Assembly (NCBI RefSeq): GCF_988243305.1
Contig: NZ_OZ547136.1
DNA: 64,000 nucleotides
Direction: 5' to 3' (one strand)
Shown here one piece after another: positions 47,601-49,239 of the stretch. Position 1 is the first letter of the stretch; the number at the start of each line of letters is the position of its first letter. The notes beneath the pieces were generated by a model that was not told the origin of the DNA, searched no databases, and was given only the letters and a program-made list of their open reading frames with translations. A program made the position numbers and the translations under genes.

Positions 47601-49239
47601 CGGAGACGGTTAACAAATAACGGCTTGGTTTATCAGCGGCGGGGAGATTTAACGCCACATGACCGCTATCGTCGGACACCGTTTCACTGCCTTCCAGCGA
47701 CACGGGAAAACGTCCGGCATAACGCAAATCGTTGCCCACCATCGACAGTTGTTGAGATCGCAAACTTAACTGCACGCGGGCATCTTTTACCGGCTCTCCA
47801 TCCGGGTAAAGCAGTTGCAGTTTGCCGCTGACCGCTTCGCCTGTTTTGAACTCTTTTTTGTCGAGAGCTAAACCAATCTCGAAATGTGGCTTGATGTAGT
47901 TTGCCACGCGAAAACTGCTGCTATAGACCTGTTTGCGGTAAGCCAGGCGTAACTCATAACCTCCGGCGACGGCATTTTCTGGCAGGCGGAAACTCCCCTG
48001 CCCGCCATTACGCGCATCCAGCGTGACATTGATGGTTTGCAACAGACTGCCGTTGGCGTCCAGCACTGAAAGCTTCGCCGGGGCGCTGACGATGGGGGAT
48101 GAATGCAACGGGTCGTGGAACTCGCGGCCCATCACTTTGACATCAACACGATCGCCTGCACGATACAGAGGGCGGTCGGTAAAGATATACAAGCGGGTGT
48201 TGTAGATTTCGCTTTCGTAGAAAAAATTCTCGGAGACAAAAACGCCGCCTTCAGCATCTTTACCCAGAATGTATGAACGTTCCGGCGATATATGTTGTAA
48301 CTGCAAGGTACCGCTGTCATCGGTCACACCGCGGGTCATCACGCCAAGACCGTCAGTCCACAAGATCTCTGAGCCGGGCTTCGCTTCACCCTGTTTTTTA
48401 CCCGCGGTCCACACCAGAAGCTCGTTACCTGACACTTTGCTAAGCGCCACGGTATCGGAAACAAACACCACCGTCGTCGCCCGATACCCACCAACCATCG
48501 CCTCGACGAGGTACAGTCCCGGCTCTTGCTTGCCTAGCGGAATATAGATGTTACCCGGCTGCGGCGAGATGAAATTGCTGGATGCACCTTCCAGTTTTAC
48601 CCCTTGCTGCGGCTCGACCGGTTTAGCCTGCCATAATGGGTAACGGAACTGTTCCACCAGTGGATATTTTTTCAGCGGGGAAAACTGGTTGTTCTGTACA
48701 TAACGGGAAGGTTTAATAATGGCATTGCCGAGATGTAATTCGGGTAATGCCTGAGTCACATTCTGCCGTGACTGAGAAGAGAAAGTACGCTGCATCACGC
48801 GGCGAGATTTGCCGTACCAGTTATCCCACAGCCAGGTCAGCGTGTTGTTCAGCCCGTCGCCCAGATATTGCGGTTGCACCACAATGCGATGCAGATTTTT
48901 CTGCTGGCGCAAAAATGCCATCGGGTCAGGAATACGATACAGACGAACATCCACACCGCCGTACTCTTCCATCTGATAACGCCGATAATCACGCCCCGGC
49001 GCTTCCAGTCGCACTTTCGCCTCTTCACTGCTGCTAAAACTGCTGTCAGCGAGCAAAAAGAATGTTCCCCCGGCGGGCGGCGCATAGTTACTGGAAGGAA
49101 GCGAATCATCAGCATTAGCAAGCCCTGTTCCCACAAGAGACAGGCACAAGCACGCTGCTATCGCGCCAGAAAATTTAAACGATAAATGCCAATGAAATTG
49201 GGATTGGAATCGTTGGGTATCCATCGGGTGTCCTTCCAT
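44620..49239 (-). CDS. yfaS: Alpha-2-macroglobulin-family protein YfaS, intact; true start may be an internal Met
   Basis: Continuous 1539-codon ORF; N-terminal hydrophobic signal with possible lipobox (..GAIAAC..); no CxEQ thioester motif visible in the translation. Confidence 0.85.

Follow-up and report, generated by a model that had tools for sequence, protein, structure and literature searches.

In the stretch of Escherichia coli DNA analysed here (64,000 nucleotides (nt) of contig NZ_OZ547136.1, assembly GCF_988243305.1, hereafter the window), the gene yfaS, which codes for an alpha-2-macroglobulin (A2M), quite probably starts at the ATG at position 49224, judging from the sequence and its relatives. 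This codon lies inside the upstream gene yfaT, and the overlap between the two genes would be genuine. The start used by RefSeq, a GTG at position 49134, is probably wrong. The evidence consists of a Shine-Dalgarno-like sequence in front of ATG 49224, of a block of nearly invariant nucleotides around it in a large set of relatives, and of lineages in which the A2M frame is retained and no other canonical start is available for an exported product. The elements of the junction are:

49158..49781, minus strand: yfaT (DUF1175, MagC homologue); ATG at 49781, stop TAG at 49160-49158, Pfam DUF1175 match with E=4e-57
44620..49224, minus strand: proposed yfaS coding sequence, 1534 amino acids (aa), type II A2M, MagD homologue; ATG 49224, 67 nt inside yfaT
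49222..49224, minus strand: Met6 ATG, the proposed start; A from the third position of a yfaT Arg codon (CGA), TG from a Trp codon
49231..49237, minus strand: Shine-Dalgarno-like GGAAGGA, within yfaT Trp-Lys-Asp (TGG AAG GAC), 6 nt before ATG 49224
49237..49239, minus strand: Met1 ATG, start of the longest open reading frame, without a Shine-Dalgarno sequence; probably not the main start
49159..49161, minus strand: ATA, Ile22 of the 1534-aa protein, aligned to the ATG of the Pseudomonas ATGA stop/start overlap
49132..49134, minus strand: GTG, the RefSeq start (1504 aa), without a Shine-Dalgarno sequence and within a local stem; probably mis-annotated

The start codon of yfaS

The yfaS frame is open from position 49278 and its longest open reading frame (ORF; 44620..49239, 1539 codons) is intact in the window. 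An earlier note on this DNA had placed the end of yfaT at 49158 and the start of the longest yfaS ORF at 49239, with an 82-nt overlap in different frames and in-frame ATG codons at positions 1 and 6 of the product. These coordinates and frames were confirmed (the two ATGs stand at 49239 and 49224), and the first base of every yfaS codon is the third of a yfaT codon. The overlap with yfaT measures 82 nt from Met1 (ATG 49239-49237) and 67 nt from Met6 (ATG 49224-49222). Position 49239, which the note called the annotated start, does not have this status: the Prokaryotic Genome Annotation Pipeline (PGAP) of RefSeq uses GTG 49134, 24 nt past the yfaT stop, and the same call was found in 4/4 RefSeq genomes inspected. 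The identical YfaS protein is deposited at three lengths, namely 1504 aa (102 contigs), 1534 aa (80 contigs) and 1539 aa (a single contig).

The candidate starts were compared by the energy of the duplex formed with the anti-Shine-Dalgarno sequence. The values obtained were -5.5 kcal/mol for Met6 (49224), +0.7 for Met1 (49239), -1.5 for both the ATA at 49161 and a TTG at 49149, and +0.6 for GTG 49134. As Met6 is the sole candidate endowed with a Shine-Dalgarno sequence, it is the most likely start.

This comparison was extended to relatives of the locus, which comprised 80 genome loci, kept from about 500 found with a YfaT profile, and eight further loci obtained by exact protein look-ups; the P. 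aeruginosa locus itself is not among the 80. The main conservation set contains 83 loci, 73 of them from Pseudomonas. Across loci, the mean duplex energy was -5.4 kcal/mol at the Met6 position (82 loci), +1.1 at the Met1 position (79 loci) and 0.05 at the ATGA start described below. Wherever the yfaS frame is open, the Met6 codon is present, as ATG in 82/82 loci and as GTG in locus L090. The comparison of start sites in orthologues, proposed in the earlier note, thus speaks for Met6, whereas Met1 is lost in several lineages. The Met1 codon is missing in 4/83 loci and in Salmonella, Aeromonas and L086, the losses including three Pseudomonas loci; it is replaced by CTG in Aeromonas and in loci L055, L059, L066 and L086, and by GTG in Salmonella, where an in-frame TGA then precedes Met6.

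The two non-ATG candidates downstream of the yfaT stop, TTG 49149 and GTG 49134, leave 13 and 8 residues (MGTGLANA|DD for the latter), respectively, before the predicted signal peptidase cleavage site, and therefore no signal peptide. Neither is conserved within Escherichia, since the GTG is GCG in E. albertii and the TTG is CTG in three other Escherichia species. In addition, the only Lys and Arg residues of the E. coli YfaS signal peptide, Arg5 and Lys17, are both encoded upstream of the ATA codon, which is consistent with an initiation upstream of this codon.

In 69 loci, mostly from Pseudomonas, the ATG of the A2M gene overlaps the stop of magC, the counterpart of yfaT, as ATGA, and a classic signal peptide follows. 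In Escherichia (five species or strains and the window), in Superficieibacter, in Salmonella and in one Pseudomonas metagenome-assembled genome (L038), the same position is occupied by ATA and the stop is TAG or TAA instead of TGA. The window junction reads CGA TAG, so that the yfaS frame reads ATA and the ATGA overlap typical of coupled genes is absent; the proximal ATG is lost here because the yfaT stop is TAG instead of TGA. In P. schmalbachii and P. jinjuensis, the junction is CGC TGA and the yfaS frame reads CTG.

As a result, 11/82 adjacent loci offer no canonical start codon in the interval from Met6 to the hydrophobic core of the signal peptide. They belong to Escherichia (the window and four further species or strains), Superficieibacter (two loci), P. 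schmalbachii, P. jinjuensis and the Pseudomonas metagenome-assembled genome. Canonical starts in this interval are also absent from the Salmonella locus L083, from L086 (53% identity, with GGGAGGA-N6-ATG) and from L090 (48% identity, with the GTG at this position). All the lineages without a proximal start retain an open A2M frame over the fetched stretch. Among the loci examined from E. coli, Superficieibacter and Salmonella, none has a canonical start other than the upstream ATG that would keep the predicted signal peptide.

The earlier note had left the choice between a genuine overlap with translational coupling and a non-ATG start further downstream. The overlap is supported, with its start better placed at Met6 (67 nt) than at Met1 (82 nt) on account of the Shine-Dalgarno sequence and of conservation; the downstream start, lacking a Shine-Dalgarno sequence, a signal peptide and conservation in Escherichia at both TTG 49149 and GTG 49134, is not supported. 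Translational coupling is not needed to account for the data.

Constraint on the yfaT tail

The central result for the yfaT tail concerns the following element:

49215..49253, minus strand: invariant block CAACAACTTATGACATGGAAGGACACCCGATGGATACCC, proposed yfaS translation initiation region; synonymous sites fixed in 83 loci

This block of about 40 nt, which corresponds to yfaT codons -31 to -19, is nearly invariant in the 83 loci (CAA CAA CTy ATG ACA TGG AAG GAC ACC CGA TGG ATA CCC), from Escherichia to Pseudomonas, and its conservation reaches relatives that are about 50% identical. The fixed codons are CAA (83/83), ACA (75/75), CGA (82/83), ATA (78/83) and CCC (82/83). In the 73 Pseudomonas loci, they were compared with the local codon usage: ACA was found in 66/66 loci vs 2.0% of the Thr codons of the background, CGA in 73/73 vs 1.4% of the Arg codons (5.2% in the enterobacterial background), ATA in 68/73 vs 0.8% of the Ile codons, CAA in 73/73 vs 21% of the Gln codons and CCC in 73/73 vs 18% of the Pro codons. 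At conserved Thr, Arg, Ile and Gln codons elsewhere in yfaT, an A was used in at most 12/83 loci, with normal variation.

The A of two of these rare codons creates the out-of-frame ATGs, ACA followed by TGG giving Met1 and CGA followed by TGG giving Met6. The Met1-creating codon is ACA in the 66/66 Pseudomonas Thr codons and AAA in the four loci that have Lys instead (window 49237-49241). The Gln codon CAA at -30, which lies upstream of both ATGs, is invariant as well. The start and its Shine-Dalgarno sequence are thus conserved across species beyond the need of the host frame, the rare codons being fixed in the 83 loci and missing in four contrast loci (L078, L087, L088 and L089). In each of these, either the two genes are not neighbours or the yfaS frame is closed; the Arg is encoded by CGC or CGT, and no ATG is formed.

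One of these contrast loci, L078 from Candidatus Methylobacter oryzae, is the sole non-adjacent case among the 80 genome loci. Its A2M gene begins about 220 nt beyond the magC stop, in another frame (L078 3561-3785), and its magC tail contains neither of the two out-of-frame ATGs.

In lineages that have to read the overlap in both frames, synonymous sites of yfaT are also depleted of differences in the overlap as a whole. Between the window and E. albertii, synonymous differences were counted at 0/25 codons in the overlap and 35/144 upstream (p=0.0026); between the window and Superficieibacter, the counts were 3/23 and 52/122 (p=0.009). Among seven Escherichia sequences, two columns vary in the 100-nt overlap vs about 18 in the 58 nt that follow the yfaT stop. 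With respect to Pseudomonas, depletion was observed in the block only (1/10), the other 18 codons not being depleted (6/13 and 7/12). The latter pattern is consistent with a conserved initiation region followed by an n-region that varies freely.

In order to estimate what chance alone would give, the synonymous codons of the YfaT tail were redrawn with the local codon usage. In the enterobacterial resamples, the yfaS frame was open from Met6 to the yfaT stop in 17.5% of cases and an ATG occurred at Met6 in 6.7%. In the Pseudomonas resamples, the Met6 ATG was expected in 1.7% of cases vs its observed presence in all 73 loci; the test of stop avoidance had a low power in this group, as the frame was open by chance in 77% of resamples. 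The net charge of the overprinted peptide is +2.05 vs -0.2 after resampling, a difference that is suggestive only, 13-17% of the resamples reaching the observed value. The overlap arrangement exceeds the expectation from chance.

The yfaT tail is itself a real coding sequence. The 27 C-terminal residues of YfaT are among the best-conserved parts of the family, with the same end residue in 20 diverse homologues, and the alignment of YfaT with P. aeruginosa MagC (PDB 7BK8; E=1.6e-101) reaches within one residue of the C-terminus. A shortening of yfaT therefore cannot remove the overlap.

Several points weigh against an initiation at 49224. The Shine-Dalgarno sequence of Met6 is of moderate strength, -5.5 kcal/mol vs -6.4 for the 5th percentile of the local background. 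In Pseudomonas, the Met1 ATG is nearly as conserved as Met6, which a model based on Met6 only leaves unaccounted for; Met1 may be a second start, belong to the initiation region or have some other role. Most Pseudomonas loci keep the ATGA start, the A of the last magC codon being seemingly selected too, so that the upstream site may be auxiliary in them. In P. aeruginosa, a deletion was complemented by magD under a vector promoter, the gene having been cloned from the annotated start. Moreover, ribosomes translating yfaT cross the site and could hinder initiation there. Finally, the 83 loci are related to each other (73 are from Pseudomonas) and their counts do not represent independent events.

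Predicted export of YfaS and competing explanations

From Met6, the protein would begin with a predicted export signal, in which a lipobox-like motif is embedded:

49111..49224, minus strand: predicted Sec signal peptide of 38 residues (n-region of 17 residues, h-region of 18, c-region ANA)
49150..49161, minus strand: IAAC, lipobox-like, residues 22-25; fits the core [LVI][ASTVI][GAS]C, probably unused

The predicted cleavage occurs at ANA|DD, between 49111 and 49110, and would yield a mature N-terminus DDSLPSSNY. The overlap codes for the n-region of the signal peptide only, the hydrophobic core beginning just before the yfaT stop. The AXA|[DEG][DE] site and the mature N-terminus ([DEG][DE]xxPxSxY) are aligned in all orthologues. 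For the homologue MagD of P. aeruginosa, a periplasmic location was established by experiment; its signal peptide is predicted to be of the signal peptidase I type, and according to the authors it has no lipobox Cys (PMC3735191).

The earlier note had raised the possibility that YfaS is a lipoprotein, on the basis of the sequence AIAAC, which is indeed present in the YfaS N-terminus. Processing by Lgt and LspA at IAA|C25, which would leave a lipidated Cys at the N-terminus, would need a start at Met1 or Met6. The motif fits the core lipobox, the Cys stands at residue 25 with Arg5 and Lys17 upstream of it, and the type I bacterial A2M YfhM/ECAM is a lipoprotein. The PROSITE rule PS00013 reads {DERK}(6)-[LIVMFWSTAG](2)-[LIVMFYSTAGCQ]-[AGS]-C, with the Cys at positions 15-35 and a Lys or Arg in the first seven residues. 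None of five alternative YfaS N-termini matched this pattern (PDOC00013), owing to a Lys at -8 from Cys25, and the hydrophobic core has only seven residues before this Cys. Besides, the Cys is not conserved, being replaced by Tyr in Escherichia sp. E1V33, and no lipobox occurs in Superficieibacter, Salmonella or Pseudomonas. The conserved AXA|[DEG][DE] site, 13 residues beyond the Cys, keeps its place in the alignment of all orthologues. A lipobox is also missing from the type II A2M class as described on the basis of MagD. A lipoprotein is therefore unlikely, and YfaS is probably an ordinary secreted protein.

A Tat signal, which the MDTRR sequence of Pseudomonas might evoke, was discarded by inspection: the RR pair is at least 20 residues away from the hydrophobic core, F-L-K is absent and E. 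coli has QR.

Three other starts compete with Met6. Met1 (ATG 49239) could be the start, alone or together with Met6; the mature protein would not differ, because the signal peptide is removed. Met1 is the first ATG of the ORF, the codon that creates it (ACA or AAA) is kept in 79/83 loci, and the 1539-aa version was deposited once; its lack of a Shine-Dalgarno sequence (+0.7 kcal/mol, mean +1.1 in 79 loci) and its loss in the lineages listed above, with the GTG and in-frame TGA of Salmonella, make this start improbable. Alternatively, ribosomes that end yfaT at TAG might re-initiate on the ATA at 49161-49159, as a relic of the ATGA overlap, and produce a 17-residue signal peptide; this would be a true coupling of termination and reinitiation, at a non-canonical codon. 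The ATA stands exactly at the ATG of the ATGA overlap of the 69 loci, whose start has no Shine-Dalgarno sequence and is therefore probably dependent on coupling. From this position, the signal peptides of Superficieibacter, Salmonella and L038 would be textbook examples with Arg-rich n-regions, and all the other junctions of the yfa operon are tight (ATGA or a 0-nt gap). However, initiation at ATA is very inefficient in E. coli, the E. coli peptide read from it has no positive charge, and P. schmalbachii and P. jinjuensis have CTG at this position with no other start nearby. Re-initiation on ATA also leaves unaccounted for the conserved upstream block and the synonymous depletion over the whole overlap, and we regard it as improbable. 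The hypothesis that RefSeq is right, with a start at GTG 49134 (or TTG 49149) and no overlap, draws on the PGAP call in the four genomes and on the 1504-aa form being the commonest among deposited proteins; but the absence of Shine-Dalgarno sequences, the position of the GTG in a local stem, the lack of conservation of both codons in Escherichia, and the 8 or 13 residues left before the conserved cleavage site, which would deprive YfaS of an export signal although its homologue is periplasmic, render it highly improbable.

The block could also be some other signal acting at the RNA level in yfaT (a CsrA/RsmA site, a coupling hairpin or a frameshift site), the ATGs being by-products. The sequence AUGGAAGGACACCCGAUGGAU (window 49215-49241) indeed contains three GGA motifs in 21 nt and resembles a CsrA/RsmA site, and the mag operon is under RsmA control, although the sole reported binding site is in the magA leader. 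RNAalifold indicates a weak pairing between the GGAA of the Shine-Dalgarno sequence and a UUCC/UUUC that lies about 60 nt further downstream, in the Phe-Leu codons close to the end of yfaT (window about 49170-49236), and the invariant CAA at -30 lies upstream of both ATGs. On the other hand, the consensus fold is weak, the Rfam scan found no match and no slippery heptamer is present; an RNA signal alone leaves unaccounted for the intact gene of 1500 codons in lineages deprived of any other start. We hold this explanation for quite improbable. An RsmA site overlapping the Shine-Dalgarno sequence would still imply a start at this place; a possible CsrA/RsmA site on top of the start would therefore not argue against it. 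The GGAA-UUCC/UUUC pairing, weak in energy and lacking covariation, could form a coupling hairpin opened by the terminating ribosome.

Other causes of the block were considered and rejected. A conserved RNA structure was discarded, given the RNAalifold consensus over the junction (24 sequences) of -9.2 kcal/mol with a covariation term of -1.0, and the fold of the E. coli junction, which is not better than that of shuffled sequences (z=+0.73) and leaves the block unpaired in the centroid; a scan of 48800-49900 against Rfam at E<=1 returned no match. An internal sigma-70 promoter or a leaderless start at Met1 was dismissed, as no promoter-like site is present. A programmed -1 frameshift from yfaT to yfaS was excluded by inspection, since there is no slippery heptamer and the fusion would bury the signal peptide. 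A recent horizontal spread does not explain the nucleotide identity, the flanking synonymous sites being heavily diverged: in comparisons of the window with Superficieibacter, Enterobacillus or Pseudomonas, 43-58% of the conserved codons are different.

Returning to the start at ATG 49224, we infer the following course of events. Ribosomes would bind the GGAAGGA formed by the Trp-Lys-Asp codons of yfaT and begin translation, in the -1 frame, at ATG 49224. The 22 codons that open yfaS share their nucleotides with the 22 that close yfaT, and the peptide read over the yfaT tail would form the n-region, with its positive charge, of a long Sec signal peptide. Cleavage by signal peptidase I after ANA would then remove all 38 residues and leave a mature periplasmic YfaS. 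As the overprinted part would be discarded after export, it would tolerate the strong constraint imposed by the YfaT C-terminus. The proposed initiation region is ancient; most Pseudomonas loci have a second ATG as well, in the ATGA overlap, and the enterobacterial lineage has lost the stop-overlapping ATG through the change of TGA to TAG or TAA and would now depend on the upstream start.

A wider proposal is more tentative, and we would rather doubt it than rely on it: the buried ribosome-binding site (RBS) and ATG might be the ancestral and still-used start of type II A2M genes throughout Gammaproteobacteria, including MagD of Pseudomonas, alongside the ATGA start. If so, MagD would be made with two alternative signal peptides, and the GGA-rich block would be a separate control point, possibly for CsrA/RsmA, that sets the amount of A2M relative to its partners.

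The RefSeq yfaS product, as found in the four E. coli genomes inspected, has no export signal, and predictions of localisation or function made from the 1504-aa form would mislead. The long same-strand overlap is backed here by comparative evidence, in that rare codons have long been fixed to build a start in the other frame. A synonymous change in magC could thus alter MagD synthesis, and constructs made from the annotated ATG may miss the native control of expression.

The yfa locus and known systems

On the minus strand of the window, the genes follow each other in the order yfaA (proximal to gyrA), yfaT, yfaS, yfaQ and yfaP. The yfaA/yfaT junction is ATGA (window 49778-49781), and the yfaS stop TAA is directly followed by the GTG of yfaQ with a 0-nt gap (window 44617-44622). 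These tight junctions are consistent with a coupled translation throughout the operon. The neighbours of yfaS resemble MagB, MagC and MagE, and not pbpC: they are yfaA (DUF2138), yfaT (DUF1175), yfaQ (DUF2300 and SpoIID) and yfaP. YfaS contains the Pfam domains MG2 (2.7e-26), A2M_BRD (4.7e-18), A2M (3.2e-12) and bMG10. The 1534-aa protein has no CxEQ (C.EQ) thioester motif, and its single Cys outside the signal peptide is at position 1189. Neither YfaT nor YfaS matched an NCBIfam model, and a search of PDB sequences with YfaS gave no match.

In the family at large, gene callers chose the A2M start that gives the 67-nt overlap for Aeromonas and Chania. In Salmonella (L083 3172-3196) and in loci L086 (2798-2816) and L090 (3217-3259), the called starts fall within or after the hydrophobic core (MIVALLLPVATSVA..., VGGSGALA... 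and MAAEML..., respectively). Truncated start calls such as that of RefSeq in E. coli seem to be widespread in the family.

The window carries a minority allele of the yfa locus. The 1.1 kb at 48800-49900 are matched at an identity of at least 99% in only 129/5392 E. coli genomes and at about 97% in most of them, the best match being strain 118UI. Unlike this surrounding 1.1 kb, the 161-nt yfaT/yfaS junction is found at an identity of at least 99% in 4031 genomes. The window and strains 118UI and ZH063 carry an intact yfaS gene. In K-12 KLY (L002 6767-11281) and O157:H7 Z1766 (L091 427-761), the gene is listed as a pseudogene on account of an internal stop and a frameshift, respectively, and it seems to have been lost repeatedly within E. 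coli.

In the literature, we found no paper on the start of yfaS (matches to the name referred mostly to the Yale Food Addiction Scale). A conserved long overlap containing an internal initiation region is a known kind of arrangement, and the 1534-aa start is already used by some depositors. The deep conservation of the start site at synonymous positions, and its presence in Pseudomonas beside the annotated start, were not found described.

Among known systems, the closest is the MagC-MagD pair of P. aeruginosa, a type II A2M system (PMC3735191, PMC5764988; PDB 7BK8). The gene order is the same (DUF2138, DUF1175/MagC, A2M/MagD, DUF2300-SpoIID), as are the A2M without CxEQ, the signal peptide ending in AXA|[DE]D and the nucleotide block, present in the magC tail of the 73 Pseudomonas loci. 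By sequence, YfaT and YfaS are clear members of the MagC and MagD (type II A2M) families. The two systems differ at the junction: most Pseudomonas loci have the ATG of the ATGA overlap, which fits the 26-residue signal peptide reported for MagD, whereas the E. coli lineage has ATA and a signal peptide that would start 63 nt further upstream. The type I A2M of E. coli, YfhM/ECAM, shares with YfaS a large A2M fold with multiple MG domains, an N-terminal export signal and a periplasmic location, predicted in the case of YfaS. However, ECAM has a lipobox Cys, a CLEQ thioester and pbpC as a neighbour; YfaS does not fit the lipobox rule, lacks CxEQ and lies in the yfaA-yfaP operon.

Long same-strand overlaps of this size are usually taken as annotation errors. 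The short coupling overlaps of the ATGA or TAATG type likewise join same-strand genes in tightly packed operons, and yfaA/yfaT and most magC/magD pairs of Pseudomonas are examples of ATGA. They differ from the proposed yfaS start, which precedes the stop by 67 nt and comes with a Shine-Dalgarno sequence of its own, so that initiation would not need a terminating ribosome. Finally, overprinted genes with an internal RBS in phages and insertion sequence elements show the same use of two frames, the same synonymous depletion in the older frame and the same maintenance of rare codons for the second start. In contrast to these, the overprinted product of yfaS would be a disposable n-region rather than a functional domain, and the arrangement is chromosomal and conserved across genera.

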